A DNA stretch of 64,000 nt from Squalus acanthias (Eukaryota). The translations under genes were made by a program, and so were the position numbers. Positions 84 through 35,064 of the stretch are shown piece by piece (positions within the stretch are counted from its first letter, which is position 1; each line of letters starts with the position of its first letter). The DNA lies in the NCBI GenBank assembly GCA_030390025.1, contig CM059432.1, positions 80,726,001 through 80,790,000 of the forward strand, read 5' to 3'. Below the pieces are notes generated by a model. It had not been told where the DNA came from. It was given only the letters and a program-made list of their open reading frames with translations, and did not search any database.

Positions 84-864
84 TAAAGATGAGTACTAAA
101 TCTAGTCTGATCTAAACTGATTCTTTGAGCATATTCTCATTTACTCTATTTGGATACAGGTTTAGAATCATGGAATGGTTACAGCACAGAAGGAGGCCAT
201 TTGGCCCGTCGAGCCTGTGCCGGTATTCTTCAAGAGCACTTCAGCCAGTCCCACTCCCCCGCCCTTTCCCCGTAGCCCTGCAAATTTTTTTCCTTCAGGT
301 ACTTATCCAATTCCCTTTTGAAAGCTGTGATTGAGTTTGCCTCCACCACCCTTTAAGGCAGTGCATTCCAGATCATAACCACTCGCTGAGTAAAAAAGTT
401 TTTCTTCGCCTTTGGTTCTTTTGCCAATCACCTTGAATCTATGTCCTCTAGTTCTCGACCCTTCTGCCAATGGGAGCAATTTCTCTAACTACTCTGTCCA
501 GACCCCTCATGATTTTGAATACCTCTATCAAATCTCCTCTCAACCTTCTCTGCTTTAAGGAGAACAACCCCAGCTTCTCTAGTCTATCCACGTAACTGAA
601 GTCCCTCATCCCTGGAATCATTCTCGTAAATTTTTTCTGCACCCTCTCGAAGGTCTTCAAATCCTTCCGAAAGTGCGGTGCCCAGAATTGGACACAATAT
701 TCCAGTTGAGGTCAGACCAGTATTTTATAAAGGTTCATCATAACTTCCTTGCTTTTGTACTCTATGCCTCTATTTATGAAGCGGAGATGCCGGTGTTGGA
801 CTGGGGTGGACAAAATTGAGAGGTCGCACAACACCAGGTTATAGTCCAACAGTTTTATTTGAAA

Positions 865-906
865 TCACAAGCTTTCGGAGCTATCGATTGCTCCTTCCTC
901 AGGTGA
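865..906 (-). ncRNA. Mirror copy of the minimal hammerhead ribozyme
   Basis: Reverse complement of 1800-1841. Confidence 0.78.
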
Positions 907-1799
907 AGTAAATTAGATACAGAATCGCCAAAGCATATATAGATAGAGAACAAAGCATGTGTACCTTACAATTGCAGACCACTAAATTAAATCATCCTGA
1001 CTATCTGCCGAGGTGTGATAAAGTTAATCAAGTCAGCCAGGAAGGTACCACATCAAAGACATAGCAAGATACAACTGAGACAATGAGGTGTAGTCGCAGG
1101 GGTTCTAACGTGTCAAAAGCTGCCGTCTGTATGTAAAACGAAAAGCTTTAAAATTTTTACTTTTTTACTGGGAAAATTTTTACTTTTTTACTGGGAATCA
1201 CATCTGTGAACAAGCCAACGACGACTCGAGTCCGGATCACGTCATGTATCGTGACATAAACCCAAGATCCCGGTTGAGACCGTCTTCATGAGTGCGGAAC
1301 TTGGCTATCAGTTTCTGCTCGATGATTTTGCGTTGTCGTGTGTTTCTAAGGCTGCCTTAGAAACACACGACAACGCAAAATCATCGAGCAGAAACTGATA
1401 GCCAAGTTCCGCACTCATGAAGACGGTCTCAACCGGGATCTTGGGTTTATGTCACGATACATGACGTGATCCGGACTCGAGTCGTCGTTGGCTTGTTCAC
1501 AGATGTGATTCCCAGTAAAAAAGTAAAAATTTTCCCAGTAAAAAAGTAAAAATTTTAAAGCTTTTCGTTTTACATACAGACGGCAGCTTTTGACACGTTA
1601 GAACCCCTGCGACTACACCTCATTGTCTCAGTTGTATCTTGCTATGTCTTTGATGTGGTACCTTCCTGGCTGACTTGATTAACTTTATCACACCTCGGCA
1701 GATAGTCAGGATGATTTAATTTAGTGGTCTGCAATTGTAAGGTACACATGCTTTGTTCTCTATCTATATATGCTTTGGCGATTCTGTATCTAATTTACT

Positions 1800-1841
1800 T
1801 CACCTGAGGAAGGAGCAATCGATAGCTCCGAAAGCTTGTGA
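1800..1841 (+). ncRNA. Minimal type I hammerhead ribozyme in the PLE pLTR
   Basis: tcac-CTGAGGA-a-GGAGC(aatcgata)GCTCC-GAAA-gctt-gtga: stem I tcac/gtga, 5-bp stem II, palindromic AAGCTT in place of stem III. Confidence 0.8.
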
Positions 1842-4800
1842 TTTCAAATAAAACTGTTGGACTATAACCTGGTGTTGTGCGACCTCTCAATTCTATTTAT
1901 GAAGCCCAGGATCCCGTATGCTTTTTTAACCGCTTTCTCAACCTGCCCTGTCACCTTCAGCGATTTGTGCACATGTACCCCCAGGTCTCTCTGTTCATGC
2001 AGCCCCTTTAGGATTGTACTCTTTAGTTTATATTGCCTCTCCTCGTTCTTCCTACCAAAATGTATCACTTCGCACTTTTCTGTGTTAAATTTCATCTGCC
2101 ACGTGTCCGCCCATTTCACCAGCCTGTCTATGTCTTCTTGAAGTCTATCACTATCCTCCTCACTGTTCACTATACTTCCAAGTTTTGTGTCACCTGCAAA
2201 TTTTGAAATTGTGCCCTGTACTCCCAAGTCCAAGTCATTAATATATACCAAGAAAAGCAGTGGTCCTAGTACCGACCCCTGGGGAACACCACTGTATACC
2301 TTTCTCCAGTCTGAAAAACAACCGTTCACCGCTACTCTCTGTTTCCTGTCACTTAGCCAATTTCGTATCCATGCTGCCACTGTCCCTTTTATTCCATGGG
2401 CTTCAACTTTGCTGGCAAGCTTATTTGTGCCACTTTATCAAACGCCTTTTGGAAGTCCAAATACACCACGTCAACCGCATTGCCCTCATCAACTCTCTCT
2501 GTTAACTGATCAAAAAACTTGATCAAGTTAGTTAAATACGATTTGCCTTTAACAAATTTAGCAGTTTGTTACAGAAATTGGCTGCATATATACACAAAGC
2601 AACAGCTTGTTTTCCATGCCAAATGTGCACACCAAGGGATTTAATTTGCTCTTAGTGTGTTAAATGAGTTAATTCTGTTTTATTTTCTAACACAATTAAG
2701 GGAGCAATCAAAAAAATTAGAATAATGGTACTGAATTACCTGTTAATTCCATTAATGGGCAAATGATTGCTTTAAATAATGCACAGTACTCAATCCACCT
2801 GTGAAGTACATAAAATTAACCACTGATAGAGTTAAGTGTAGAAAGACCCACATCACAGAGAGACCATGCAAATCACTGTAGATGGTATAAGGAAATGAAG
2901 AAATGCTGTCTATAGTTCAGAAGAATGACCCACAATAAAGCAGATGGGTGTATGAGATAATTGTGTGGAATGCTAACAACGTTTGGAAGAATGTGCAGAA
3001 GTTGCCCAGTTTAAGGAAAAGCAACAAGGTAAGCATTTAGAATCAGTCAATTATCTCATATTGTTGTATACGGGCATAACTGCCAGTTACTTTACATCGC
3101 TATATATGAATATGGGTCCCAATTATCCTACATTTTTAGAAATGCCTCTACAAGGAGGCTGCAGAGGTAACAGGCGACAGACACGTTTGGCTGTATAATT
3201 TCACAGAAGAGTATCGCTAACCTAAATTTAACAAGCACCTTGCTATGCAATACAAAAGAGAGCTGATGATGCTATTACAATAGCTTGAAAAGGCACATGC
3301 CTTTAAGAGGTTGCAAAAGATTTTCCCCCAACTTGTTTATATATAGATGTAACCGACTATATGAAAGTACTTAGTATGGTTTTCCATTTTCAACTAGCAA
3401 GATATTACAAATTTCATTCTGTGAGCCCTGCCAATTTATGTATACGTTGTGCAGCCTCTGCTTTTCTCTGCAAAGTTACATCTCAAGTAATGTAAATTAT
3501 TCTTTTCTTGGCAAAAGATGACGCCTTCAGTGGGCAATGCCATGTTGAGACTGGTGGTGACAGTCAGTGAATAAAATCCCTTACCCAATTTGAGCGGCCC
3601 ATTATGGATATTGTAGCCTGGGAATGTGTACACAGCATGGGGGATGCTGAACATTGTGGAAACAGCAATGCTGCTGGTTGGTGCAATGATAATTGCACAC
3701 ATTCACTATAGCAACGATTTTCACTGTCATCATATTCAAAGCAGTATTTGTGTTCCTTTACGAAACACAGTGTTTACTGTCATTGCCACAAAAATATGCA
3801 AAACAATGCCTTTTTGCTCAACTTGTGCCATCTTCTTTTTGCAGAATGGCTACAAGCCCGAAAGGAGGAAGCTGTTACAAGTGGAAATGTCACACTCCCC
3901 TCAGCACTCTGTGGCATTCACATTACTTTCAGCTTGGCACCAGCCCAGACATACACTTTTGAAGGTATTACTGTGTTTGACAAGGCAACACAGGCTGAAT
4001 CAAATAAAGAAGGAGGAAGGTGGCTGGTGAAGAAGGACTGGGTGTTGCTGTGTGGAGGTACAGCAGGACCTTGGGCACTTCGAACTTGCTTTGTGATTCT
4101 AGTCTCATGAAACCACAAATTAAATTTAGGATACTTTACAAGCATGAACTGGTGAGCAATTCACTTGTATCAATGCAGAAGACAATGCATCTGGTCTAGC
4201 TACACTTGTGGATTCTATCACCTGTCATGAAACGAGAGTTCTCTGCTCTGCAGCCTGTCATCGAGCAGCCTGCAGCCTCAGTGGCATCTCTGGTGAGACC
4301 TCTGGCACACGGTTGGCAGGCACACTTGGAACATCTCTTAGGAATGCTCCATTGATGATAGCGAGATATTGAGGTCTAAAGACCAAGATGCAATGAACAC
4401 CACTTTTGCTAGGAAATACATTTCAAAACACTCATGATGGAGGGATTCACAAACTTTGCAGCAATACTATGGTGGTCTATACGCACAAATCAGTGACTGC
4501 AGGTAGGACTTGGCCTCTAGAAGTACCATGCATGCCAAAGCACAGGAACAGGGGAGTACTCCTTGGGTCACCACCAGTCCCTTGCTAGCAACTGTTGCTG
4601 GGCAAGTAATGGGAGAAGTACAGCAAAGCTCCCAACTACTAGAAATGGACAAGTTATACCTGGCATGCAGGCAGGACTGTGTAGGCAGCCAGTGAAATTG
4701 TGCATCATGAGTATTCTTTGGGGAATGAGCACTGATTTGTATAATTTTTTTTGCCAGTGATTGTATACCATCTGAATATTGAGTAAACACTAACCTTGCA

Positions 4801-5199
4801 TCTTGATAAAATGCAAGGCATTATCTGCAGCATGATGGATGACAACTTGATTGCAATCAATGGTGCCTTGTACGAGGGGAATGCCACATAAATGGAAAAA
4901 TTGGGTCTACCTTTCCAGCTGTTACTGCTCTGCCTGCCGTATCTGTCACTTTACACTAGCTTCACATATTCAATTTAGTGCATTGTGTGATCCTGTAATT
5001 CCTAAGTAAATTTGCCAATATCCTATTAATTCCAGTTGAACAAACAGTTCACAAGCAAAAAAAACCTCTTAACATTGGATCAATACATTAATATATTTTA
5101 CAACTGTTTACTGCCAGGAGCAATTGAGCTGCATATACAAAAGGTAGCACTCGCTATATAAACACAACAAAATTACTTCTGTAACAACAATAACATTCC

Positions 5200-5870
5200 A
5201 TAGGTGCAGGAAAATGTTGCAAAGTGCTTTGTAATAAGGTGGCACCAAGCATGGGGAAAGGAGGAGATGGATGGGGAACCAAAGGCATTGATGAAGAGGA
5301 GGAATTTTGAAGTGGATTCGAAAGCACGGAGAGAGAGAGGGTAAGGTGGAGTGAAGTTGGAAGTGAATAAGAGAGGGCAGGAGCTTAGTGGATGAATAAG
5401 TGGCTACCACTGGTGAAACATAGGGGCAAGGAGCAAGGAAAAATCCGGTATTAGAGGTAAGGACAGTGCACACGGGCATAAAACAGGACGAGATTATTCA
5501 AGTGACAGGGGGTGACACCATGGAAAGATTTGACATGCTGGTGCATGGGGAGCTTGGAAATGATAGGGGCGATGGGAGTGTAGCATTTAGTATAGATGGG
5601 GATGTGAATTGCGATGTTTGGATGATGGAAGGTTGATGCGGGGAAGCCAGCTAGGGCAGGATTGGAGAAGTTAAGCCTTGAAGTGACGAAGGTATGGACT
5701 AGGGTTTCAACGCATAAGGGCAGAAGTGGCAATGTTGCAGAGGTGAAAGAAATCACTTTTAATAAGAGAGCATACATGGGGAAGAGTCTGATCTTGGCAT
5801 TGAACAGGGTGACAAGCTTCTGCACTCCATTTGAGGTGACAACCAGGGAGATTGATCTGTGGTCTGCACA
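5200..5870 (-). mobile_element. Degraded L2-clade LINE 3' fragment
   Basis: ORF 5451-5825(-): ETLVHTFVTSRLNFSNPALAGFP, resembling the L2 motif LVHAFITSRLDYCNSLLAGLP. Confidence 0.65.
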
Positions 5871-6094
5871 GAGTGGTCTTAAACGGAATGCATCTAAACA
5901 GAGTGTTAAAGTTGGGAATTTGGAGAGAGTGGGAATTCGGAGCAGAGGGGGAAGGAGGTGCTGGTTTTTGCCTCCAAAACTTGTAGTGCTTTGTTTTACA
6001 AGTAAATATTTAATTTCATCTACCTATAACATAAACTAGATCTAGTAATTCATTAAAAACTAAACTATAAGCTAAGTTAATTAAACACTTACGA

Positions 6095-7811
6095 AGCTCG
6101 GCGGGTCCGTGGCGGACAACGTCGGTGGCGGATCTCGACCCCGCTGCTGCCTCCATCCCGGCCTCTGAAATGACTTTCCGATGATTGGGCCAGCGCATTT
6201 CCCAGCCAATTGAAGGAAGTGGGTCTGATGACGTTATTTATGACGCGTCATCAGCCGGTTTCCTTAAAGGGGCCATGCCCAAATTTTAGTTTGACATTTG
6301 TGCTGTCAGTGTTCTACAGCATTGAGGTGCTGCAAACACGGACAAGCACTGCGCAGAGGTGCACGGCTGCACCCAGGCTTTCCCATGACTCCCTCCATAT
6401 GCTTATGGAGGGAGTCACAGCACAAAGGGAGGTCCTCTTCCCTTCCCATGAGTGGAAGAGACCTCCCCAGGACACCAATGTAGTCTGGTTTCACATTGCA
6501 CAAGAGGGCACAAGCAGGGATGTCGTCAGGAGGACCTGGCTGCCGTGGCGCAAACCTTTCAATGATCTCAGTAGATCACAAAATGTTACTGCAAAGCCAC
6601 ACTCAACCTCATCCTGCTGTGCCACTCATCACATCCCCATCACTCTGCCTTCCCTACCCTACTCCTGTACATCCTTACTCACACCAACTTACCTTGCACC
6701 TCCATCCATCCCTCTCTATCTACATTATCACTTCCCCATCTCACTAGCCACCCCTCACACTCACTCTCATCCTACTGCAAGCATACCAACTAACAACACA
6801 CAAGGGTAGGCACTTGGATGTTTTAGCCAATGTTCATGTAAAGTTTCTGTTAATGTGCTGTCAAACATTGAAACCTTTATTTTCAACACTTTGCGTTCTT
6901 GGAAAGATTTGTGTGCACCTTTAGAAGTGAATTAGTGAGTTGCAGTGAATGCTGATGAGTGTGAAAGGAATAGCTTGGGCATTGTAGGGATACTTTATGT
7001 TGTTGGTGTGGGATAGTGCCAACCTGGCACATCATGTGGCATCCAGGGTGTACACCGTCAAGTGAATTAAATGTGGCCATGGTGAAGCCATCCCTGGCCT
7101 CCCAGGCAGCAATGTGGTTGGGTTCTGATGCCCTGTGTCCTGTGCAGCATCAGGTGATTGCAGAGAAGGTTGGTGGTGTTGTTCGTGCTGCTGGTGTGCC
7201 TGGTGATGCTGGTGTTGGGGCTGATCGTGGTGAGATTCTGAAGACCAAGGTGAGAAGGTTTCAAGGGCACCCATGCTGATGGAATAGATGACAGGTGAAG
7301 TAGAGATGACAGAAGCGATCTGTCAATGGTGGGAGAGGTAATGAGGTCAGACTGGGTGGAGACTTGTGTAAAGACTTGCAGCGTGGTGAATCTGTAGTGG
7401 AAATGCAGTTTAGAGAAGCTAGTGGTTAAGGGAACATTTCTCAATCAGCTGGGAGCTATGACTTGACATTTGAAGCTGTCAACTCATCAGCTGATTCAAT
7501 GGCCACTGACCTCCCGCCTCAGCTTCAAGCCTCAGTTTCCCATCTAGGCACAGCGGGAAACTGGTGGGCGACCTGTCAAATCCAAAAAGCTGGGAAAAAA
7601 ACAGTTAAATGGCTGTAAACAAGCCACTAATTATTTTAATTGCCTCCCCTGCCGCTGCCTATCGGGTCTGCTCAGCGCTGGCAGAGCCGACATTGGGACA
7701 GTCCAGTGTGCGCGTTTTGACAGCGGGTTCCCGACCCGCTGTCAATCATTTAAAATTTAACAGCTGACCCACCACCCATCCCGTCCACTGAGCGCCGGCA
7801 AAATTCCGGCC
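6095..7811 (+). mobile_element. PIF/Harbinger remnant with the first exon of a Myb/SANT-like gene
   Basis: Peptide APRLSHDSLHMLMEGVTAQREVLFP...WFHIAQE...RRTWLPWRKPFNDL at ~6365-6580; right terminus AAAATTCCGGCC at 7811. Confidence 0.75.
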
Positions 7812-7855
7812 ATAAACTTTAATTAATTAAATAAATAAAACAAGGTTATATAGAG

Positions 7856-8775
7856 ATGGCAGTGCAGGTGGTGTGCCACAACTGCAGCATTGGGACTTTG
7901 TGGAGAGCGTCGCGATCCCGGACGATCATGTTTTCAGTAAGTGTCTGCATCTCGGGGAACTTCAGCTCATAGTTGTTGAGCTGGATTCTGAGGTGCAGAC
8001 ATTGCGGGGCATCAGGGAGGGGGAGACTTACCTGAACACTTTGATCCAGGAGGCGGTCACACCCCTTAGGTTAGGTAGTGGTACAGGTCTGGTTAGTGGT
8101 CAGGGACAGGAGGGTGTGACTGTGACTCAGGCAGGTAAGGGGACCCCAGGTTCAGTGCTGGAGGAAACTTGCCCTTTGCCCTTATCCAGCAGGTATGAGG
8201 TTCTTGCTGCCTGTGTGGATGAGCAAACTGACCATGGCACCGTGGTACAGGCGGCCATTCAAGCGGGGAGAGTGAAAAGGAATGTTGCAGTAGTAGGGGA
8301 TAGTATAGTCAGGGGGATATATGCTATTCTCTGCACCCGCGACCGGGAGTTCCGAAGGCTGTCTTGCCTGCTCGGTGCCAGGGTTAAGGATATCTCCTTG
8401 TAGCTGGAGAAGAATTTGAAGTAGGAGGGGAAGGATCCAGCTGTCGTGGTCCATGTTGGAACCAACAACATAGGTAGAACTAGGAATGAAGTTCTGCTGA
8501 GAGAGTTTGAGGAGCTAGGGTTCAAATTAAAACGCAGAACCTCATAGGTTCGGATTATTACCTGAGCCACGCGCAAATTGGCATAGGGACAAGCAGATCA
8601 GAGAGTTAAAAGTGTGGCTCAAACAGTGGTGAGGAAGGGGTTTCGATTCATGGGGCACTGACACCAGTACTGGGGAAAGAGGGAGCTGTTCCATGGGGAC
8701 GGGCTCCACTGATACTGGGCTGGGACCAGTGTCCTGCCGAATTGAATAAATAGAGCTGTAGATCGGGCTTTAAAC
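7856..8775 (+). pseudogene. CR1 ORF1 (Cys-rich N-terminus, coiled coil, SGNH esterase domain), disrupted
   Basis: Motifs VVGDSIVRG, LGARVKDI, VVVHVGTNNIG and DGLH; in-frame stops near 8401 and 8422. Confidence 0.8.
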
Positions 8776-13337: not shown

Positions 13338-14995
13338 GAACGACTCCTCTAAAGATACAATAAGTGGTGTGTTTGTTTAAGAAGGGATGCAGAGTTGGTG
13401 TAGTGTTTTAGTGGTACATGCCTATTGTTGTGATAATTTGGGAGGTGCACATCTGAGTCTTGGTGATAGTGATAGAAACACCTTCAAGCTTCTGGTGTCC
13501 TGTTGTCCATTTCCTGACAGTCTGTCAGAGGCAGTCCTTGCTTCCAAATTGACTTTATTCTATGAATTATAGAGAATGTTAATTTTGAAACTTCTAATCC
13601 AAATATAAAGAAATGCTCATTCATAGAAATCAGTTCTGATCACCCTGAGTAAGTAGGACCTGTTAGTAACCTGAATGGTAGCACAAAACAAGGATAACTA
13701 AGGGTAATATAACAAAATTGTGCTCCCAGTTGGCAGCTTTGCCTGCCAGGAGCATATATTGAGAATTTGGGCACATGATCACCATGATTTTCTGTTTAAG
13801 TTTCCATTAACTTTTTCTTACTGTTTTGTAATACTTCTCGCTGTAATCCTTTTTACAATATGCCTTTGCAAGGCAGAGATGCAAACCAGTTGTTTGCACC
13901 GTGGCAAATAAATTTGAAAATTATGAATGACCCCTTCATTGATCTGTTTGAAGAGCAATCTCATTTAATTTCAATTCAGTTGTTCTGAAAATCATAGTTC
14001 AAACAAATATGACCAGTATAAGGATAAAATTAGCATCATTCATGGGGTAATAATACAACAATAATCACTGTGGCATGAAAAAAGTAACTGCTGGCAATAT
14101 AAATAGCAGTTACTTTGTGCTTTGGTGTAGAAAAGCATGTTTGGCAATGAAATGGAAGTTATATAAAACAATAATTTTGAGGAGAACCGTGCAGCAGCAC
14201 TGCAGAAGCAGTGGGGCTGAAACTTCTCCTCTTCCTTCCCACCCCCACCCCATGCATCCAACTGGAGTGCAGTTGAACCCAGTTGAGTTTCCAGGTTCAT
14301 CTCAGTTGCATGCTTTGGCCCTCATTTGGAGGTGATTCTGTCCCATGGAATGGAACAGGCCTGGCAGCAACCAGAATTTCTCCATCCTCACTGCTACTCT
14401 TTGCTGGCCTTAAAACTTGCATTTTTAGAGATGTTGGGAAGTTGCAGCTAAATCCTTTTCAGATCTTCCAATCTGAAAGTACAGGCCACAATCTCCAAAG
14501 CCCACTTTCTTTCGGCAACCTTCTTTTTTTGGTGTCTTCCAAATGGAAACCCAGGAAAATGATGCAAGGAGCATTCTGATGTCACTCTGGTGTCATTATC
14601 ATATGATTTAAATGCCTCACCTACTGGGTAATGTCCCAGGTAATGTACATCAATCACAAAGGGGATGGAGACCAGGTGTAATGACGTTGCCACATATCAT
14701 AGAAACATCTGACGCAAGCTCACTGCACTGAAATAGGAAAACTCCCAAATTCTAGTGATGCAACCAATGCCTATCAGGGACTGATACAGCAGACGAGCAG
14801 AGCAGTTCACAATAATGCCACTGCCACTTCCTGGAATTGGAGTGATCCACTACCCAAGCCACTTAGTAAGGCTCACTCACTAGCACAATGCCCACTGAAA
14901 GAGACGTGCCCAGAAGTAGGGAACGAACCAACAGCTTTGAGGTCTTCTGGCTGCTATTCAATATATACAATGAATTTGATCTATCACTATGTGTT

Positions 14996-15310
14996 CATAG
15001 AATCAAAGAAATTTACAGCACAGAAGGAGGCCATTCGGTCCATCGTGTCTGTGCTGGCCGAGAAAGAGCTATCCAGCCTAATCCCACTTTCCAGCTCTTG
15101 GTCCGTAGCCCTATAGGTTACGGCACTTCAAGTGCATATCCAAGTACTTTTTAAATGTGATGAGGGTTTCTGTCTTTACCACCCTTTCAGGCAGTGAGTT
15201 CCGGACCCCCACCACCCTCTGGATGAAATCATTTCTCCTCAACTCCTCTCTTATCCTTCTACCAATTACTTTAAATCTATGCCCCCTGGTTATTGACCTC
15301 TTTGCTAAGG
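14996..15310 (-). mobile_element. CR1 3' end fragment
   Basis: Homologous to the CR1 3' UTR at 163-480. Confidence 0.75.
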
Positions 15311-15422
15311 TCCTCCCCTCCAGGAGGAGGCTGCGCTGCTGCCCACCACCAGTTTAAGTGACATGTTTCGCCCTGTGTGAGGTCCTTGCTGCATGAACGC
15401 ATAGATATAGATTAAATTCATT

Positions 15423-16167
15423 GGGCTGGATTTTGATACTGGGGCGGGTTGGGGTCGTGTCATCCGCATTTCGTGTTATCCACCCGACTGCAATTGGATG
15501 TGGGAGATTGATGCAATTTTGACCTAATTTTGCAATTGAGTACCAGCATGTGGGAACCCATGAACCAATTAGTGGTTTGAGTCTGAAAGTCGCCTCTGAT
15601 GATGTCATCATTGTTGCTGCATTGCAGGTCAGAGACTGCCTGGCCTTTGCTGTGAGAGGACATGGACGCGGACGCAAAAGGAGCAGCAGCTCTAAGGAGA
15701 GAGAGATAGAGAGAGAGAATTTTTTTTTGCATCCAGGTCCTCTCCCAGCAAAGGCCAGGCAGTCTCTGAAGACCTTCAATGCAGCAGCATCAGAGGCGAC
15801 TTTCAGACCTAATACTACTACTTTCATCACATCTCTGTTGTAATAGTGGACCTGCAGCTGATAGTCAGCTATCCACTTGTGCTCCCGCCAGGTTTCACTG
15901 GCGTGTTTCACATCAGGCGTGCTTCACGTGGGAAAAGGGTTAAACTAGCTAAAAAGTTTCAAAATGGCATTACAGAGCCAATTTAGGGCTTGTTAAGGGC
16001 TTTAATGGCCTCTCCCGCCTCTTGGAGGCGGGACGGAGACGGGAACACCGCACACGATTTCTTCAAAATTGCATGGAGACGGGATCAGGTCCGCCCGCCA
16101 CTTTTTGCAATTTTAACCCCCCACACGCCTCCAAACCCGCCTCCACGGGTCTATGAAAATCCAGCCC
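15423..16167. mobile_element. PIF/Harbinger MITE, copy 1
   Basis: TIRs GGGCTGGATTTT...AAAATCCAGCCC; flanks ATT/ATA; highly similar to 17770-18473. Confidence 0.85.
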
Positions 16168-16878
16168 ATAGTATATATAGGATAGCAGCCAGAAGACCTC
16201 AAAGCTGTTGTAAACAAAGAAGAATTGCAATAGAAATTGGAGGGGGATAATCGTGACTACATTTTTCTGCCTGTTAGTGCTGCGATTTCAGAACAAAATT
16301 TAAGTATGTACCAGTGACCTATATCTCCAGTTTAGACCTATAATATAATATGAGGGATGATTTTAACCCCTTTTGCCGCTGAGATGAGGGAGTGTGGGGA
16401 TTTTAATAGAGGCAGCGTCCTCCCCTCTGGGTTGACACCGTGCTCATGTCTATCTCCAGTTTAACTGACATGTTTTGCCCTGTGTGAGGCCCTTGGTGCA
16501 TGTAGGCAAGGGCCTCATAAATATGGAAAAGTTGGGATCCTGTGATGTAAATAGGACCCTGACGTGATTTTAATCTGCAGTCACATGACCCATGCCTGGT
16601 GCCGGGCTTGCCAGATAAAGCTGGTGGCAGGCAGGAGCAGGCCCTGAGAAGGGCTGAGAAGGTAAGGTTTAAAACATTTTTACGATCTCCATGTGGACCT
16701 GAAGGAGCAGGTTTGCTCCTATCAGCCCCACAAGGAAACTTTGGACCTCCCTTGCCCTGGGCTTCTCCCACCCACCGGCCAGGCACTGATTCCTGCTGGG
16801 ATTTGTTGGGAGACTCAACTGAGAGATGGAAATGAGGCCCAGGAGTTAAAATGGCCTGGGCATCACTCCAGCGTGACC

Positions 16879-19800
16879 ATAGAACATAAGAACATAAGAC
16901 ATAGGAGCAGGAGTAGGTCATTTGGCTCCTCGAGCCTGCTCCTCCATTCAATAAGATCATGGCTGATTTGATCTTGGCCTCAACTCCACTTCCCTGCCCG
17001 CTCCCCATAACCCTTGACTCCCTTATCGTTCAAAAATCTGTCTATCTCCACCTTAAACATATTCAATGACCCAGACTCCATAGCTCTCTGGGGAAGAGAA
17101 TTCCATAGATTCACAACCCTCTGAGAGAAGATATTCCTCCTCATTTCCGATTTAAAAGGGTGCCCCCTTATTCTGAAATTATGCCCCCTATTTCTAGATT
17201 CCCCCACGAGGGGAAACATCCTCTCTGCATCTACCCTGTCAAGCCCCTTCAGAATCTTATATGTTTCAATAAGATCTCCGCTCATTCTGCTGAACTCCAA
17301 TGAGTATAGGCCCAACCCGCTCAACCTTTCTTCATAAGATAACCCCTTCATCTCTGGAATCAACCTTGTGAACCTTCTCTGAACTGCCTCCAATGCAAGT
17401 ATATCCTTCCTTAAATAAGGAGACCAAAGCTGTACGCAGTACTCCAGGTGTGGTCTCACCAACGCCCTGTACAGTTGTAACAGGACTTCCCTACTTGTAT
17501 ACTCCATTCCCTTTGCAATAAAGGCCAACACTCCATTTGCCTTCCTAATTAATTGCTGTACCTGCATGCTAACTTTTTGTGATTCATGTACAAGGACCCC
17601 CAGATCCCTCTGTACCTCAGCATTTTGTAATCTCTCCCCATTTAAATAATAATTTGCTTTTTTATTTTTCCTACCAAAGTGGATAACCTCGCATTTTCCC
17701 ACATTAAACTCCATCTGCCAGTTTTTTGCCCACTCACTTAGCCTATCTATATCCCTTTGGAGATTCTTTGGGCTGGATTTTGATACTGGGGCGGGTTGGG
17801 GTCGTGTCATCCGCATTTCGTGTTATCCACCCGCCTGCAATTGGATGTGGGAGATTGATGCAATTTTCACTTAATTGGGCAATTGAGTTCCAGCATGTGG
17901 GAACCCATGAACCAATTAGTAGTTTCAGTCTGAAAGTCGCCTCTGATGATGTCATCATTGTTGGTGCATTGCAGGTCAGAGACTGCCTGGCCTTTGCTGT
18001 GAGAGGACCTGGATGCAAAATGAGCAGAGAGAGAGAGAGAGCGAGAGAATGAATTTTTTTTTTCATCCAGTTCCTCCAAAGGCCCCGGCAGTCTGAAGAC
18101 ATTCAATGCAGCAGCATCAGAGGCGACTTTCAGACCTAATACTACTACTACCTTCATCACATCTCCGTTGTAATAGTGGACCTGCAGCTGATAGTCAGCT
18201 ATCCACTTGTGCTCCCGCCAGGTTTCACTGGCATGTTTCACATCAGGCGTGCTTCACGTCAGAAAAGGGTTAAACTAGCTAAAACGTTTCAAAATGGCAT
18301 TACAGAGCCAATTTAGGGCTTGTTAAGGGCTTTAATGGACGGAGTCGGGAACACCGCACACGATTTTATCAAAATTACGTGGAGGCGGGATGGGGTCGGG
18401 ACCCCCGAATCTGCAACGTTAACCCCCCACACGCCTCCAAACCCGACTCCACGGGTCATTGAAAATCCAGCCCTTTGTGTCCTCCACACAATTTGCTTTC
18501 CCACCTATCTTTGTATCATCAGCAAATTTGGCTACATTACACTCAGTCCCTTCATCCAAGTCATTAATGTAGATTGTAAATAGTTGAGGCCCCAGCACTG
18601 ATCCCTGCAGCACCCGACTAGTTACAGTTTGCCAACCTGAAAATGACCCATTTATCCTGACTCTCTGTTTTATGTTAGTTAGCCAATCCTCTATCCATTA
18701 CTCCCAACCCCGTGAGCTCTTATCTTGTGTAGTAACCTTTTATGTGGCACCTTATCGAATGCCTTCTGGAAATCCAAATACACGACATGTACTGGTTCCC
18801 CTTTATCTCCCCTGCTCGTTACATCCTCAAAGAACTCCAGCAAATTTGTCAAACATGATTTCCCTTTCATAAAACCATGCTGACTCTGCTTCACTATATT
18901 ATGATTTTTCTAAATGTCCTGCTATCACTTCCTTAATGATGGACTCCAACTTTTTCCCAATGACAGATGTTAGGCTAACTGGTCGATAGTTGCCTGCTTT
19001 CTGTCTCTCTCCTTTCTTAAATAGGGGCGTTACATTTGCAGTTTTCCAGTCCGCTGGGACCTCTCCAGAATCCAGGGAATTTTGGTAGATTACAACCAAT
19101 GCATCCACTATCTCTGCAGCCACCTCTTTTAAGACTCTAAGATGCAGGCCATCGAGTCCAGGGGACCTGTCCACCTTTAGTCCCATTAGTTTGCCTAGTA
19201 CTTTCTCTCTAGTGATAGTGATTGTTTTAAGTTTCCCCCCCCCCCCACCCCAATAGCCTGTTGATTATCCATTATTGGGATGCTTTTAGTGTCTTCTACC
19301 ATGAAGACCGATACAAAATATTTGTTCAAGGTCTCCGCCATTTCCCTGTTTCCCATGATTAATTCCCCAGACTCATCCTCTAGGGGACCAACGTTTACTT
19401 TAGCTACTCTCTTCCTTTTTATATACCTGTAGAAGCTCTTACTGTCTGTTTTTATATTTCTTGCTAGCTTACTCTCATCAGCTATCTTCTCTCTCTTTTT
19501 ATCATTTTTTTAGTTGTCCTTTGCTGCTTTTTAAAAAATTTCCCAATCATCTGGCCTTTCACCATTCTTTGCAACATTGTATGCTTTTGTTTTCAATTTG
19601 ATACCATCCTTTACTTCCTTAGTTAGCCACGGATGGTTCATCCTTCTCTTAGAGTCTTTCTTTCTCACTGGAATATATTGCTGAGAGTTATGAAATATCT
19701 CCTTAAACGTTTGCCACTGCTTTTCTATTGTCTTACCCTGTAATATATTTTCCCAGCCACTTTAACCAAGTCTGCCTTCATAGTTTTGTAATTACCTTTG
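16879..19800 (-). mobile_element. CR1 LINE (~2.2 kb of ORF2 plus 3' tail), split by a MITE
   Basis: ORFs 16980-17816, 18691-18894 and 18899-19186 carry RT motifs (NYRPVSLTS, YLDFQKAFDKVPH, KFADDTK); tail (CATAAGAA)n. Confidence 0.92.
17770..18473. mobile_element. PIF/Harbinger MITE, copy 2, nested in CR1
   Basis: Same TIRs as copy 1; exact TTT/TTT TSD; the CR1 sequence rejoins across it. Confidence 0.9.
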
Positions 19801-22184: not shown

Positions 22185-22294
22185 GTATGGGATACTTTCC
22201 ATATATCACAGTTTTGCTATTGCTGCATTTTCTCTGATCCTCCTTATTGCTTAGAATTCATAAAACGGAGTACTGAAATGTCTCTCCCATATAG

Positions 22295-22867: not shown

Positions 22868-23360
22868 TCTTCTCTCTCTCTCTTAGGCAGTCCCTCGGAA
22901 CCGAAGATGATTTGCTTCCACATTAAAAATGAGTTCTCAGGTGACTGATGAGTCCAATGCGGGACCTACAGTCTCTGTCACAGGTGGAGCAGACGGTGGT
23001 TGAAGGGGCGGGTGGGTGGGGTGCTTGGGTTGACGTGCGCTGCCTGCGCTTGGCTTCCGCTTGCTCCCGGAGAAGAGACTCGAGGTGTTCGGCGCCTTCC
23101 CGGATGCTTCTCCTCCACTTTGTACGGTCTTGGGCCAGGGATTCCCAGGTGTCGGTGGGGATGTTGCACTTTTTCAAGGAGGCTTTGAGGGTGTCCTAGA
23201 AGCATTTCCTCTGCCCACCTGGGGCTCTCTTGCCATGTCGGAGCTCCGAGTAGAGCGCTTGTTTTGGGAGTCTCGTATCGGGCATGCGGACAATGTGACC
23301 CGTCCATCGGAGCTGATCGAGCGTGGTCAAAGCTTTGATGCTGGGGATGTTTGGCACTGA
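22868..23360 (-). mobile_element. RTE-clade LINE 3' end
   Basis: LKKCNIPTDTWESLAQDRTKWR...CSTCDRDCRSRIGLISHLRTH, then a short 3' UTR and (GA)n tail. Confidence 0.8.
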
Positions 23361-25960: not shown

Positions 25961-26784
25961 AGTCTTGGTAATGATGCAGGACTTCTATATTCCTAGTGTA
26001 CCAGTTGCCTATGCATCCACCACTTGACACCCTCAGCTAAGGAATGTGACACAAACACAACCAGAGAAGTTCACATCACGCAGGAAGCAAATGAGACAAT
26101 AAAACACATTAAACGTGTGCTCTAGTAGCAATGTACAACTTAATAAAATTAATTCACTTCTGATATATCCTGCAGTCTGTTATTCTGTGGGAGCCTAGAT
26201 GGTCCAAGTGCCATAAAAACTGAAGGCAATGATGAACCTCCCTGTCTCTAGTAGTGCATTCCAGAAGGTTGACTGCTTCTTATAATCCTAAGGCTAAGGA
26301 TTGCTCTTTTTTCCAGGGAACTCCAGGCTGCCTAAATAACTGATTGTTGCAGTACAACTACTGCCTGGGGCAGTATCTGCTGCAAGTCATATGCCCTCTG
26401 TGAGCTCTGCAGGCCCAGGTTGTTCTCTCCTCCGCCTGCTCAATTGTGATATATATGCCAATGGATGCTACACCCATGTTCTCAGACAGGAAATTCCTCA
26501 GTAGTATTCAGTTCTGTTATTACCATTGTGACAGTTAGAAATCTTTCCCTCTGTTAAACTCATTAGCTTCAGGTCTGACCTGGGAAAAAGAACTGCTTTT
26601 GGTTTGACTCTGCAGCTAAGGAATGTTGCTCAAAGCATTGGAAAGTAAAATTTCTTACTTTTTGCTGGGCTCTAACTATGTTTTTGTAGGGATATAAATA
26701 CTCAATCAATACTAAACATGTACCACTCATCCATTGGCGCTGTCTCCCAATATTCCACCACTTTTTAATCCACGTCAAAATGTT

Positions 26785-27055
26785 ATCTTGGCTCAGCGTT
26801 AGCACTCACACTGCTGGATCAGCAGGTTGTGGATTCAAGACTTACTGCAGCAGTTGAGAACATAACCGAGGCTGACACTTCTGTGCAGTACTGAGGGAGT
26901 GCTGTATTATCAGATCCTTCAGATGAGACACTAAACTGTGCTCATGTTCACGCAGACATTAAAGATCCTGTAGCAGTATTTGAAGAAGAGCAGGGTGTTC
27001 TCCTGGTTTCCGAGCCAACATTTATCCCTCGGCTAACGTCACCAATACAGATTAA
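26785..27055 (+). mobile_element. DeuSINE-type SINE (tRNA head plus Deu domain)
   Basis: TGGCTCAG...GGATTCAAG head; GTGCAGTACTGAGGGAGTGCTG; GAAGAAGAGCAGGG...GCCAACATTTATCCCTC. Confidence 0.7.
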
Positions 27056-27868
27056 CATGGAAGGAGCTGTATCAATGCAGGTTCTTTCCCCATTCGTGAA
27101 CAGAGGATTGTTGATCTTATCATGAAAAATAAAATCAATGATTGCTGAAGTTACTGCCAGATCATAGCTTCCAGTAGGTTTCAGTGGCCTATGGTAATGG
27201 TTACAAATAAGTTATTGAAAGTTAGTTACACCAACAGGATAGAACAGAATAGCAGTAATACTGTTAATTTAATTTTCCTTGATAATTTTTAGCATTACAC
27301 TGATATAAAGTACAGAATGAAGAATAATCTCATTCTGCGAGGCTGTATAATGCGAAGCTGATGCTGATAATTTAGGGACATATTTTATTCTGTTCACCAA
27401 TTTGGTGAAAAATGAGGATTATAAAGCAGTATTTCTGCTTTATGCTCATGCCCACGTTTTTGCTAAAATTGGAAAACAGAATAAGAAAGCTCCCATAGAC
27501 ATGTCAGAGGCGGAATCAGTTTACAAAGCCTTCGCCAGCCATGGAGTTTCTATAAGAAGGTTAAATGCTCACTAAGTGTGCCACTCTAAAATCACAGCAC
27601 CATCATTGTACCACAGACCAACACTGTCCAAGGGAACTACAACCACTCAGAGAAGTTAGATTTGCTCTGAGAAATTCAAGGACTCTAATTCTGTTTCAGA
27701 TTTCTCAAGTCTTGCCCTTTTTGTGGAGAACTTGTGGCGAAGTGTACAATCAACGTTTAATAATTCAAATACAATAGCAAAATACTGCAGATGCTGGAAT
27801 CTGAAATAAAAACAGAAAATGTTGGAAATACTTAGCAGGTCAGGCAGCATCTGTGGAGAGAGAAATAG

Positions 27869-27905
27869 AGTTAATGTTTCAGGTCTGTGACCTTTCGTCA
27901 GAACT
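27869..27905 (-). ncRNA. Mirror hammerhead ribozyme (PLE family B)
   Basis: Reverse complement of 28807-28843. Confidence 0.72.
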
Positions 27906-28806
27906 GGAAAAAGTTAGAGATATAACAGATTTTAACCAGGTGCAGAGGCAGGTAAAGGGGGAGGGGAAGAAAGAATAAAAGGGACGGTCTGTGATAGGGT
28001 GGAAGGCAGGAGTGGTTAAATGCTGCAAATGGGAATGGCAGAATCATCAACAGCTGCCGTCTGAAAAAATAGGGCCAGAGGTTATGGTCTGAAATTGTTG
28101 AACTCGATGTTGAGTCTAGAAGGCTGTAAAGTGCCTAATCAAAAGATGAGGTGCTATTCCTTGAGCTTCATTGGAGCAGTGTAAGAGGCCGAGGTCAGAG
28201 TGGGAGTGGAGCGGAGAATTAAAGTGATAGGCAACCGGAAGCTCGGGGTTACCCTTACGGACTAAACAGAGGTGTTCCGCAAAGCGGTCACCCAATTTGC
28301 GTTTGGTCTCCCCAATGTAGAGGAGACCACATCGTATACTGTATTCGCTGCTCACGATGCGGTCTCCTCTACATTGGGGAGATCAAACGCAGATTGGGTG
28401 ACCGCTCCGTGGAACACCTCCGTTCAGTCTGTAAGGGTAACCCCGAGCTTCCGGTTGCCTATCACTTTAATTCTCCCCTCCAATCCCACTCTGACCTCTC
28501 TGTCCTCGGCCTCTTACACTATTCCAATGAAGCTCAACGTAAGCTCGAGGAACAGCACCTCACCTTTCGATTAGGCACTTTACAGCCTTCTGGACTCAAC
28601 ATTGAGTTCAACAATTTCAGACCATAACCTTTGCCCCTATTTTTTTCAGACGGCAGCTGCTGACGATTCTGTCATTCCCATTTGCAGCATTTAACCACTC
28701 CTGCCTTCCACCCTATTACAGACCGTCCCTTTTGTTCTTTCCTCCCCTCCCCCTCTTTCCCTGCCTCTGCACCTGGCTAAAATCTGTTACATCTCTAACT
28801 TGCTCC

Positions 28807-28843
28807 AGTTCTGACGAAAGGTCACAGACCTGAAACATTAACT
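28807..28843 (+). ncRNA. Minimal type I hammerhead ribozyme (PLE family B)
   Basis: agtt-CTGACGA-a-AGGTC(aca)GACCT-GAAA-catt-aact; stem I agtt/aact. Confidence 0.75.
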
Positions 28844-28876
28844 CTGTTTCTCTCTCCACAGATACTGCCTGACCTG

Positions 28877-29600
28877 TGCATGAACAGAGAGACCTGGGGG
28901 TATATGTGCACAAATCGTTGAAGGTGGCAGGACAGGTTGAGAAAGCACATAAAAAAGCTTACGGGATCCTGGGCTTCATGAATAGAGGTATAGAGTACAA
29001 AAGCGTGGAAATTATGATGAACCTGTATAAAACACTGGTTCGGCCTCAACTGGAGTATTGTGTCCAATTCTGGGCACTGCACTTTAGGAAGGATGTGAAG
29101 GCCTTAGAGAGGGTGCAGAAAAGATTTACAAGAATGGTTCCAGGGATGAGGGACTTCAGTTACGCGGATAGACTGGAGAAGCTGGGGTTGTTCTCTTTGG
29201 AGCAGAGAAGATTTAGAGGAGATTTGATAGAGGTGTTCAAAATCATGAGGGGTCTGGACAGAATAGATAGAGAGAAACTGTTCCCATTGGCAGAAGGGTC
29301 GAGAACCAGAGGACACAGATTTAAGGTGATTGGCAGAAGAACCAAAGGCGACATGAGGAATAACTTTTTTACTCAGCGAGTGGTTATGATCTGGAATGCA
29401 ATGCCTGAAAGGATAGTAGAGGCAGACTCAATCACAGCTTTCAAAAGGGAATTGGATAAGTACCTGAAGGAAAAAAGTTTTCAAGGCTACGGGGAAAGGG
29501 CAGGGGAGTGGGACTAGCTGAAGTGCTCTTGCAGAGAGCCGGCACGGGCTCGACGGGTCGAATGGCCTCCTTCTGTGCTGTAACCATTCTATGATTCTAT
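28877..29600 (+). mobile_element. Young 5'-truncated CR1 insertion
   Basis: Open ORF2 C-terminus to its stop at 29517; tail ATTCTATGATTCTAT; TSD TGACCTG at 28870-28876 and 29600-29606. Confidence 0.93.
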
Positions 29601-30321
29601 GACCTGCTGAGTATTTCCAGCATTTTCTGTTTTAATAATTCAAAGTTGTTTTTTGCTGTACAAAATGGAATTAAGCAGTGCAAATAAGAGTAAGCTGGGA
29701 ATTTGGTGCTAATGATTAATGTTCAAATAATTTGAATGATACAATTTGGTATTAAAAGGATTGGATATCGATAAATTGAACTTTGCATATATGTTTGAGA
29801 TTGCCACAAATTCTAGAAGCAGAGGAAAACAGAACAAGGAAGGTGCACAGACAGTATAGATTAACTACTTCAAGCAATGGGAAGTGAACTTGTTGCACAG
29901 TTGTGCAAAGGCAGTGGATGCAGCTAATGTGAAGAAAATTAAGGGAGAATTTATTCGATATTTAGTCCATTGGCAATTAAGAGGTATTCGTTTTTGGGAC
30001 AGGACTGATAAGCTGCAGAATCCTATACTTTCCTATGTCCTTGCAACACAACTAGTCCACATTCCCAACCTCACAAACCAATTTACAATGAAAATGCAAG
30101 AAGCAAATAGTTGAGTGACCTGATTTAAAAAAAACTCAGCTTATTTATCTGTAGAATTGCAGTTCAGTTTGTTTTCTAATTAAGTTGGTTCTCTCCTTGA
30201 TTATACAATTGTAATCTTCCACCAACTTCTAATTTAACCATCTGAAAGATAGAAAACTTTCTAGTTCTGTTTTACAACCATCTCAGGTTGGTGCCAAACT
30301 ACAATGCCTTTTAATTTGAAA

Positions 30322-30447
30322 AAAAATGAGAAGTCGCACAACACCAGGTTATAGTCCAACAGATTTATCTGTTGGACTATAACCTGGTGTTGTGCGACTT
30401 CTCATTTTTGTCCACCCCAGTCCAACGCCGGCATCTCCACATCATGA
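30322..30447. mobile_element. PLE family A mini fold-back insertion
   Basis: 43-bp arms 30322-30364 and 30367-30409; tail 30410-30447 homologous (reverse complement) to 783-813; TSD CTTTTAATTTGAAA at 30308-30321 and 30448-30461. Confidence 0.88.
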
Positions 30448-32097
30448 CTTTTAATTTGAAAGCAGGCTTGAAGCTATCAGCGCGCCAGTTATCCATTTCT
30501 CTAAAGCAGACCTCAGTATAATTCCTAACCACATTACAGACTGTCTTTCATAACTATCCTATTCTCACCTGAATACTCATTGTTTATTTTGGACAATGAG
30601 CTGCAAAAATTATATTGAAAACAAATTCAGTAAATGATATGACAAGAAGGCAGATCAAGTGAAAAGAGGTCTCAGAGCTCACAGCTAGGTCTAGCTTGTC
30701 ATTCACACTCTGTCTTGGTTATGATAGAATTGTTCTTCTGTAGACATCAGTCTGAAATATCAGTCAGTCCCTGGAGAGCAGCTGTAATAATTATTCTGCA
30801 GTTTCAGCAACACAGATTCCAAACCCTGGAAAATTGTTTGTATCAGAATGCCTTAGGTAGTGCTATCATATCAGTAAAACACATCCCTAATCCTTGAGTG
30901 CTGGCAGTCTGGCACTGCATTAGGTATCCTTACATTAAATATAAGAAGCAGTGCTTAGTGCTGTTGTATCTGTTAACAGTATCTCAGATCTATTGGAGAG
31001 TAAGAACTCGAGGTTGCTTCAGGCTGGTCTATATACCCAGTAGAGTTACATATTGCTTTCTGTGAAATAAAAATTCAGTCCCCTCAATTGTATCATTTAT
31101 AAAACAAATCTATAGTATTGTTATTTAATATAATGCATAATATGGCCAGAAATACATACAAAATTACATAAAATACTGCTGTAACTTTGGCGGAACCTCA
31201 AAATGACCATTTTCAGCCATTTGCGCCATTTTTCAGGGGAATCCGCAGCTGTTTACATTGTTTCTCTAGGGGTCTGCTTAGTCTCCTACTGAAGTTATGC
31301 AGGGAGACTGGGAGACCTTCTACCCCGCCACCCCCACCGTACCCTGCATATGAGTCTCCACTTGGATCATTGGCCCGGATTTTGCGGTCAGCAGCGAACG
31401 AACGGCGCTAGCTGCTCATTACACTTACCCACAGACTTTCTGTGGGCTTTTGCACTGCAACTTGCGGTGATTGGAAATGCGAAACAGTACAGTGCCCTCT
31501 ACAGGGGATCTGGGACCTTTATAAATAGGGCAAGCAAATGTGTATCTCCTTAACCAATCAGATTGAAGAATCCTTAGTGTGACATACAGTGCGAAAACCA
31601 GGGAGTGTGAGTTAGAATATTTAATTCAATGCCAAATCATGTACAGAAAGCAAAATAAAGAGAGGGAAAGAAAGATGAGATTAAGAGAGAGAGATAAAAG
31701 AGACAGAAATAATTTTTTTTAAATAAATTTTTTAACTTTTTAAATCTCCAAGAATAATTAAAATCTGAAGGAATGCCGTTAATGATAGCTTTTTCTGGTG
31801 TGTTTAGTGGGTATCTAATGGGCAAGTACCGCAAGTTCACACCCTTCCATGTGTTTCAATGCTGAGTCTCTGGACAAGATACTGGTACAGCGAAGCTTCT
31901 GGAGGAGCAGATCATCTCAGACAGCAGCTTCCCGATTTCCGTGTTTAACTACGCGGATGCGGATGCTGGAAGTTACTGTCCAGTTTACCACTTAATAGTG
32001 GTGAGCGCTGATAGTTTCACCGTTATTTCTACTGCAAAATCTGGGCCAGTATCTTGAAATCTGATGTAATTATTTTCTGCTTCACCCCATCTCCAAG

Positions 32098-34991: not shown

Positions 34992-35064
34992 ATGAACTCT
35001 GTTTCTCTCTCCACAGTTGCTGCCTGACCTGCTGTGTATTTCCAGAATTTTCTGTTTTTATTCG

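Follow-up and report, generated by a model that had tools for sequence, protein, structure and literature searches.

Insertions with the layout described here are known from several PLEs. In the account of Craig et al. (2021, PMC8557442), canonical complex insertions of endonuclease-bearing PLEs consist of a head-to-head inverted, truncated copy with a 30–40-bp tail at one end, the pLTR contains a hammerhead motif, the GIY-YIG is C-terminal, and the TSD length is called variable. For Pen2a_Av and relatives from Adineta vaga, Arkhipova et al. (2013, PMC3846280) described an inverted pLTR, a 31-bp one-sided tail, a TSD of 8–10 bp around the unit, and palindromic inverted junctions that were read as the result of self-priming on an antisense template. 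In vitro work on PAc, a Poseidon element from Anolis carolinensis (Frangieh et al. 2024, PMC11167929), identified two RT starts that bracket the tail; a dimer was predicted, and target–RNA homology was reported to be absent. Minimal hammerheads with type-I cores were found in the pLTRs of metazoan PLEs and include opposite-strand pairs 100–700 bp apart (Cervera and De la Pena 2014, PMC4209133). The texts of PMC11167929 and PMC8557442 still call PLE integration after first-strand priming unresolved.

We analyzed a stretch of 64,000 nt from Squalus acanthias (the window), in which the initial annotation had recognized three fold-back insertions from two dissimilar PLE families, each with a 14-bp duplication, a one-sided tail (31, ~40, and 38 nt) and arms of 43 to ~550 bp. 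Reanalysis bore out this description. Direct repeats of 14 nt, the longest exact repeat for each pair of ends, lie exactly at the insertion ends (769/1892, 27756/29631, and 30308/30448 for insertions 1, 2, and 3, respectively); the arms are 539, ~530, and 43 nt long, and the unpaired tail, present on one side only, comprises 31, 39, and 38 nt. All three insertions contain a head-to-head inverted 5'-truncated copy, and in all three intact units the TSD flanks the entire unit in an AT-rich target. On both sides, the 3' ends of the target run into antisense element ends (3/3 insertions). The two arms of one insertion differ by only 1, 18, and 2 nt, compared with a range of 43–539 nt between insertions. 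In a random control with 3 nt slack allowed at each end, none of 20,000 position pairs reached a repeat of at least 11 nt. Somewhere in 64 kb, pairs of identical 14-mers 60–2500 nt apart occur by chance at a mean of 0.95 (20 simulated sequences); such pairs are thus no rarity, and the nonrandom part is their location at the element ends. These data confirmed the three hairpin-shaped PLE fold-back insertions as genuine. Their layout, with an inverted truncated copy, a one-sided 30–40-nt tail, a TSD, and a palindromic junction, is already published (PMC3846280, PMC8557442); the new hints seem to be a target duplication of up to 14 nt in all three and copying that was apparently begun from both cut ends. 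The copies differ from the PLEs described in PMC8557442 in being stumps without a full ORF and in having near-equal arms. Inspection of nine stretches at other 12–14-nt direct repeats of the window revealed no further fold-back PLEs. A Pfam scan of 98 of the 111 stop-free frames of at least 70 aa outside the window's repeats gave retroelement domains and subthreshold matches only, and no host exon at the lengths that such a scan detects, short exons escaping it. The intronic setting named in the initial annotation is therefore conjectural.

The longest DNA match between the two families, termed A (insertions 1 and 3) and B (insertion 2), is 16/17 nt. Family B is a GIY-YIG PLE and, judged by its homologs, probably of the Neptune type. 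Its ORF at 28223–28627 carries the GIY-YIG motif and is 63–70% identical to skate and ray proteins, and homologs of 813 and 816 aa carry RVT_1 together with GIY-YIG. Pfam gave no match for this ORF and a weak one (E 0.043) for a sibling ORF. The window copies are cut short within the endonuclease, and the RT is known from the homologs only. The CX2-5CxxC linker upstream of GIY-YIG, which according to PMC8557442 marks the Neptune and Nematis clades, belongs to a region that the window copies lack; the close ray/skate homologs P0002 and P0003 have it, as do 45 of the 88 homologs that extend far enough upstream. Of the C-terminal region in which a GIY-YIG endonuclease would be expected, family A retains just the last 37 residues (best match E 2e-5 among 154 PLE-type proteins) and is classified by its sequence as a hammerhead-bearing PLE end. 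Families A and B both have core boxes with a stem II of 5 bp, which we take to be hammerhead-like, and insertions 1 and 2 have them in each arm; an Rfam search gave 0 matches at the gathering score. Like the minimal hammerheads of PMC4209133, these putative cores are of type I, lie in pLTRs, and include opposite-strand pairs. The element ends gave 0 loci in the metagenome contigs and 0 in the viral contigs scanned, and two matches in prokaryote genomes were rejected, as only 24–37 nt matched and they look like chance. Family-B fragments at ~33.3–35.1 kb and 47.9–48.5 kb have lost their ends and have no TSD; they were excluded from the count of three.

Insertion 1 interrupts a CR1 LINE. Its left TSD copy (769–782, plus strand, 14 nt) is part of the CR1 target and is followed by the unpaired tail, the extreme 3' end of family A (783–813, minus strand, 31 nt), and by the tail-side arm (814–1352, minus strand, 539 nt), which comprises the last ORF codons and the pLTR with a hammerhead-like core at 872–902. 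At the turn (1348–1358), a native inverted match of 5 bp encloses a 1-nt loop (1353). The tail-less arm (1354–1892, plus strand, 539 nt; hammerhead-like core at 1804–1834) has its final base in common with the right TSD copy (1892–1905, plus strand). The arms are complementary at 539/539 positions. Contigs of four runs, two of them from one sample that is possibly the window's own source, were aligned to positions 700–1353. Contigs running from 782 on into CR1, as paralogous empty sites do, numbered 341, 339, 284, and 19 in the four runs; the contigs contained unpaired junctions only and hence gave no additional TSD lengths. In all four runs the depth over the tail was lower than that over the arm end, which is not evidence, as depth does not equal copy number.

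The perfect identity of the two arms and the fact that no contig of the four runs spans the turn would suit a fold-back artefact of sequencing or assembly. We consider this hardly credible: the target is present once in two other CR1 copies of the window (paralogous empty sites), and the TSD matches this empty target exactly; the tail is one-sided, the turn sits on a native inverted match, and insertion 2, an older insertion with 93% identical arms, has a like anatomy. The copy departs from a large share of the family depth at several sites, yet its arms are identical throughout, which supports, at the sequence level, the origin of both from one template. A common template for the arms would also follow if the palindrome pre-existed in it, either because a fold-back source was transcribed through or because an antisense RNA primed itself, as proposed for rotifer PLEs (PMC3846280), and was then re-inserted. 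Such an origin is very improbable, as the turning points of the two family-A insertions differ (43 versus 539 nt from the end), family-A contigs continue through the turn of insertion 1 into native sequence (past 1352 in 18 contigs of X3; a variant past 1351 in one contig each of X3 and X6), and a one-sided tail does not follow from a palindromic template by itself. No strand-switch joint was present among the 15 of 29 contig joints listed for 700–1353. Fourteen of these 15 listed joints link CR1 at 762–780 directly to family A at 810–817, though the sides are short (19–39 nt, 88% likeness) and such joints are prone to repeat artefacts. Together with the third family-B fragment, which likewise ends at the tail-less site (35064), these joints mark the tail-less end as a discrete site.

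Insertion 2 is flanked by TSD copies at 27756–27769 and 29631–29644 (both plus strand), with a maximal length of 14 nt and a true length of 11–14 nt. The tail, the 3' end of family B (27770–27808, minus strand), has 39 nt, or 42 nt if the three shared T are assigned to the TSD. The tail-side arm (27809–28337, minus strand) has a hammerhead-like core at 27876–27901 and leads to an 18-nt loop (28338–28355, plus strand) with a 2-nt match at the turn. The right, tail-less arm (28356–29633, plus strand) is interrupted by a later CR1 LINE 3' fragment (28877–29599, plus strand) with a 7-nt TSD of its own (28870–28876/29600–29606); its main part (28356–28876) comprises the GIY-YIG C terminus (to 28627) and the pLTR with a hammerhead-like core at 28811–28836, and its end (29600–29633) has the last three T in common with the TSD. 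Ungapped identity between the arms is 464/498 (93%). A pLTR segment of ~80 nt is absent from both arms and present in both sibling fragments; like the identity of the arms in insertion 1, this common gap supports a single template for the two arms. In insertion 3, the left TSD copy (30308–30321, plus strand) is followed by the tail-less family-A arm (30322–30364, minus strand, 43 nt), a 2-nt loop (30365–30366, minus strand), the tail-side arm (30367–30409, plus strand, 43 nt), the 38-nt tail (30410–30447, plus strand), and the right TSD copy (30448–30461, plus strand). Its arms are complementary at 43/43 positions and too short to contain the hammerhead motif.

As the probable route to all three structures, we favor ordinary 5'-truncated insertion of endonuclease-bearing PLEs by priming from both target ends combined with snap-back of a cDNA. 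First, nicks made by the GIY-YIG endonuclease in the two strands of AT-rich DNA, ~13–14 nt from each other, would produce two 3' overhangs. The geometry of the nicks is visible in the TSDs, and a constant distance between them would be an extrapolation from three insertions. Each 3'-OH would then serve as a primer for copying the element RNA: one would start at the distal site (the tail end) and the other at a U-rich site 30–40 nt upstream, and pairing of a few target-end bases with the RNA would help. Both target ends do continue into antisense element sequence from two discrete sites, and the priming enzymology of this step is taken by analogy from PAc, for which cleavage and extension of both strands, an AT-rich target, and two adjacent internal RT starts spanning the tail were likewise described (PMC11167929). 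PAc is a Poseidon element and belongs to neither family A nor family B, the latter probably Neptune-type by its homologs. Finally, either cDNA would stop early, pair back at a 2–5-nt inverted match, and extend on its own strand, and the resulting sense strand would anneal to the other cDNA before gaps are filled and sealed. This route should yield a palindrome of two head-to-head copies that has a very small loop, carries a tail at only one end, and is flanked by a TSD. The turns sit on inverted matches of 5, 2, and 2 nt in insertions 1, 2, and 3, respectively, so that all three centres are compatible with snap-back at such matches.

The origin of the loops argues for priming at both ends. In insertion 2, as judged against the sibling copy at 48104–48140, the loop is in sense orientation and collinear with the tail-less arm; the loop of insertion 3 is assigned to the tail-less arm as well, by about five bases and by comparison with the native family-A sequence in insertion 1. 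The loop of insertion 1 probably belongs to the tail arm, an assignment that rests on one base: the native antisense strand has C (T in two contigs), whereas the sense strand would give G/A. The initial annotation had proposed hairpin-primed second-strand synthesis, in which a single cDNA, begun at the tail end, forms a hairpin whose second strand halts 30–40 nt short and joins the other target end. Its hairpin component agrees with the short inverted matches at the centres and with arms copied from one template; self-priming at inverted junctions has been proposed in PMC3846280, and a single cDNA would account for identical arms and tiny loops and fits insertion 1 with its tail-arm loop base and native 5-bp inverted match. 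The restriction to one cDNA did not stand. In insertions 2 and 3, the collinear loops mean that the tail-less arm holds sequence that the tail-side cDNA never had, which contradicts a single cDNA in two of three cases, and the fixed stop is left without explanation, whereas a second RT start site explains it. A lone tail-primed cDNA is therefore unlikely. As the loops come from differing arms, no single folding cDNA suffices and priming at both target ends is needed; likewise, the tail cannot be copied from a cDNA begun upstream of it, so two primed cDNAs are needed. Unlike the self-priming on an antisense template proposed for Pen2a_Av (PMC3846280), the loop polarity thus points to cDNA snap-back from either primed end.

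L1 twin-priming inversions share with the insertions studied here priming from both ends of the target, microhomology at the joint between the halves, and a TSD around the unit. In L1, however, the second primer pairs with an internal stretch of the RNA, and the two halves are nonoverlapping copies of different RNA parts; the halves found here are mirror copies that both begin at the 3' end. Twin priming without snap-back, in which both cDNAs stop near a common 5' end left by RNA breakage and are joined through 2–5 nt of microhomology, would give the same product and allow loops from either arm, and extension of both strands was observed in vitro (PMC11167929). It would require two cDNAs to end within 1–18 nt of each other over 43–539 nt, so that both must copy the same RNA or an RNA broken at the same place, and we regard it as rather unlikely, though less so than the single cDNA. 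Snap-back in one cDNA and end-to-end annealing of two near-equal cDNAs give the same product and are indistinguishable here.

The fixed GIY-YIG stagger suggested in the initial annotation was not established, although the data lean toward it. Microhomology at the tail-less junction allows TSD lengths of 13–14 (insertion 1), 11–14 (insertion 2), and at most 14 nt (insertion 3), with some further overlap possible at the tail ends of insertions 2 and 3, where the native sequence beyond is unseen. In simulations with chance extension, the probability of three equal maxima was 0.004 for a flat range of 7–20 nt, 0.010 for 8–16, 0.038 for 12–15, and 0.146 for a fixed length of 14; a fixed length thus makes the observation ~15–33 times likelier than a broad one does. 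A narrow length, and with it a fixed stagger, is favored, and fixedness is unproven with three insertions and variable TSDs in the literature. There is perhaps a one-in-several chance that the equal lengths are a coincidence within a broad range, which would concern the stagger alone and not the rest of the mechanism: PMC8557442 has PLE TSD length varying with second-strand cleavage, in contrast to the three maxima of 14 found here, PMC3846280 gives TSDs of 8, 9, and 10 bp as well as copies without TSD, and the microhomology in insertion 2 permits 11–14 nt. The probabilities under broad ranges speak against it. The open literature searched contained no statement of a fixed or 13–14-bp PLE TSD or of PLE twin priming, though older subscription papers that defined the tail may have one. 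The main text of PMC11167929 yielded nothing on TSD length, stagger, or the second-strand step, nor did its supplement text, whose figures may show nick spacing; PMC9977147 and PMC12602865 were equally uninformative.

Tentatively, and with somewhat less than even confidence, the two families without alignable DNA may integrate by one concerted, dimer-like step, in which cleavage of both strands, with a constant stagger of 14 nt, precedes cDNA synthesis, each 3' end primes at one of the two RT starts, and snap-back can occur in either cDNA. That would bring PLE integration nearer to a measured double cut than to the sequential TPRT of LINEs, and the geometry of the complex could be read in genomes from TSD length and loop side. 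At present, three cases with a published anatomy make a tidy example rather than a discovery. If a length of 14 nt and loops from both sides proved to be the rule across the genome, they would be cheap genomic read-outs of two missing integration steps: TSDs would report nick spacing, contrary to the published statement of varying PLE TSDs, and the loop side would prove in vivo priming from both ends. These very abundant PLEs would also be a source of numerous long, perfect palindromes in the genomes of cartilaginous fish, with consequences for assembly and for genome stability.

A conserved terminal stem-loop, sought around the RT starts and not put forward here, was at best borderline (z −1.99, −0.60, and −1.27), with shuffled sequences equally stable in 4/200 cases for family B (borderline) and in 52/200 and 22/200 for family A (not significant). 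The A-rich target ends lie opposite the U-run at the tail-less site. In contrast to the absence of target–RNA homology reported for PAc in PMC11167929, the junctions show a few matching bases; the last 9 nt of the left TSD copy of insertion 1 match the native family-A tail end at 6/9 positions (binomial P 0.012).

The longest exact direct repeat at the ends of each of the three fold-back PLE insertions was 14 nt (copies at 769/1892, 27756/29631 and 30308/30448 for insertions 1, 2 and 3, respectively), and repeats of at least 11 nt occurred at none of 20,000 random position pairs (3 nt slack allowed). A 14-mer pair within 2.5 kb arises by chance at a mean of 0.95 per 64 kb (20 simulations); such a pair is thus unremarkable in itself, and its placement at the element ends is what counts. 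By these end-to-end repeats, the three insertions that the initial annotation had reported with 14-nt repeats at their exact ends are real. In insertion 1 (family A, a hammerhead-bearing PLE end), an unpaired tail (783–813) precedes arms (814–1352 and 1354–1892) that are complementary at 539/539 positions around a 1-nt loop. Insertion 2 (family B, a GIY-YIG PLE) has a tail at 27770–27808, arms of ~530 nt identical at 464 of 498 positions and an 18-nt loop; its right arm carries a later CR1 fragment with its own 7-nt TSD. Insertion 3 (family A) consists of arms of 43 nt each, a 2-nt loop and a tail at 30410–30447. This is already known PLE anatomy, aptly described in the initial annotation: an inverted 5'-truncated copy with a one-sided 30–40-bp tail appears in PMC8557442, and a TSD as well as a palindromic junction, the latter interpreted as self-priming, in PMC3846280.

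Insertion 1 lies in a CR1 copy, so that empty paralogous targets exist for comparison. The 14-mer was present once in two such copies inside the window and in 341, 339, 284 and 19 contigs across four sequencing runs, two of which represent one sample, possibly the window's own source. After accounting for element overlap, the true TSD was 13–14 nt for insertion 1, and 11–14 and at most 14 nt for insertions 2 and 3, the latter two set without native sequence past the tail end.

A TSD implies two 3' overhangs at the target, and in 3/3 insertions both target 3' ends run into antisense element sequence, which starts at the tail end and at a U-rich site 31–39 nt upstream. The family A tails of insertions 1 and 3 stop at approximately the same place on a common coordinate. 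The tail of insertion 1 falls 9 nt short, and the last 9 target nt match the corresponding native bases at 6/9 positions (P = 0.012), as though the end of the target had paired with the element there. CR1 762–780 was joined directly to family A 810–817 in 14 of the 15 joints listed (of 29 in all), which we read as further family A copies in further CR1 copies; with sides of only 19–39 nt and an 88% threshold, this clustering is only indicative of a discrete tail-less site. For an Anolis element in vitro, cutting and extension of both strands were reported, with two RT starts whose interval equals the tail (PMC11167929). Similarly, two priming sites bracketing the tail are inferred here from the insertion sequences. 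The AT-rich spot of the CR1 3' region at 745–782 of the window is apparently a repeated family A target and possibly a preferred PLE target within CR1: among the 15 of 29 joints listed, from contigs of four runs, 14 distinct ones lead from 762–780 (six of them from 777) to the tail-less end, and the 14 outside this list may include joints lying further upstream.

The palindrome centres of insertions 1, 2 and 3 coincide with inverted matches of 5, 2 and 2 nt, respectively, and native sequence past the turn of insertion 1 in 18 contigs identified this turn as a natural micro-hairpin. Arm lengths differ by just 1, 18 and 2 nt, respectively. The arms of insertion 1 are identical, yet differ at several sites from much of family A, and a segment of ~80 nt present in both sibling fragments is missing from both arms of insertion 2; both arms of an insertion thus share one template. 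Together, centres on inverted matches, near-equal arms and a common template make snap-back copying plausible. End-to-end joining of two cDNAs of nearly equal length is a rival that would yield the same product. Loop side distinguishes the models: the loops of insertions 2 (18 nt) and 3 (2 nt) are collinear with the tail-less arm, and the single loop base of insertion 1 agrees with the strand on the tail side (C in the native sequence, T in two contigs). The loops of insertions 2 and 3 are not obtainable from a tail-started cDNA, and the tail has no template in a cDNA started at the tail-less site; hence, two primed cDNAs are needed. Of the mechanism proposed initially, a fixed GIY-YIG stagger with hairpin-primed second-strand synthesis, the snap-back thus stands as plausible, and a single cDNA is insufficient. 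The corrected mechanism, which we consider fairly likely, is dual priming followed by snap-back: two target-primed cDNAs would be formed, either of which could fold back and copy.

The family B ORF codes for the C-terminal portion of a GIY-YIG domain. At E values of 0.001 or lower it has 2,253 relatives, two full-length ones containing both RT and GIY-YIG; the nearest named homologs, from a skate and a ray, point to a probable cartilaginous-fish source. A CX2-5CxxC linker marks Neptune and Nematis (PMC8557442). This linker was found in the closely related homologs from ray and skate and in 45 of the 88 family B homologs with room for it, and is seen in homologs only, the region being absent from the family B copies in the window. 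The family A coding remnant comprises only 37 C-terminal residues, which weakly resemble PLE endonuclease ends (best E 2e-5, 154 PLE-type proteins compared). By what we take to be the core pattern, the pLTRs of both families contain a putative minimal hammerhead-like core; an Rfam search for these cores gave no match. The longest DNA match between the families is 16/17 nt.

The probability of three equal maximal repeat lengths was 0.146 for a fixed 14, 0.038 for a flat 12–15, 0.010 for 8–16 and 0.004 for 7–20. A narrow TSD range is therefore favoured, 15- to 33-fold over the 8–16 and 7–20 ranges at n = 3. Variable published TSDs count against a fixed stagger: PLE TSD length is called variable in PMC8557442, and TSDs of 8, 9 and 10 bp and copies without any are given in PMC3846280. 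No statement of a fixed or 13–14-bp PLE TSD was found in the open-access literature, older subscription papers lying outside this scope. In its strong, dimer-like form, a fixed 14-nt stagger common to unrelated families is possible but less likely than not, and it is the single remaining testable point.

Self-matching sequence makes up 38% of the window, as in repeat-rich vertebrate DNA; other repeats include CR1, L2-like and Harbinger pieces, and no convincing host domain was found in 98 of the 111 candidate frames, so that the intronic setting named in the initial annotation is only a possibility. Two older family B fragments with lost ends, at which no TSD was seen and which still contain the pLTR segment of ~80 nt that insertion 2 lacks, were not counted. 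One (33329–33714 and 34991–35064, span 33329–35064) is interrupted by a GC-rich insert with a 45-nt hairpin at its end (34844–34939), and the fragment itself terminates at the tail-less site; the other (47889–48450) joins an antisense pLTR piece to a sense endonuclease piece. It adjoins the right end of a head-to-head inverted L2-like LINE (46566–47270/47618–47888) whose 246-nt core is 97% complementary and whose halves flank a CR1 piece. An inverted pair of ~70 nt (14929–14998 versus 15393–15423 and 16167–16210) is interrupted by the 3' end of a CR1 and by a MITE that has short terminal inverted repeats (~15421–16166; sister copy at ~17768–18473); the pair matched neither family A nor family B, and a TSD was not seen. 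Small imperfect inverted repeats at 49173–49286, 55516–55613 and 27375–27494 are non-PLE by sequence. Both arms of insertion 1 contain a 23-nt tandem duplication (1150–1197 and 1509–1556), which is unchanged in another organism's contig and is thus a subfamily trait rather than specific to this insertion. A weak, sub-threshold C2H2 zinc-finger match (22926–23195, minus strand; E 0.0012) may represent a host exon or the remains of a retroelement. A DDE transposase fragment (58762–59388, minus strand; Pfam DDE_Tnp_4, E 2.5e-22) is Harbinger-like by our reading.
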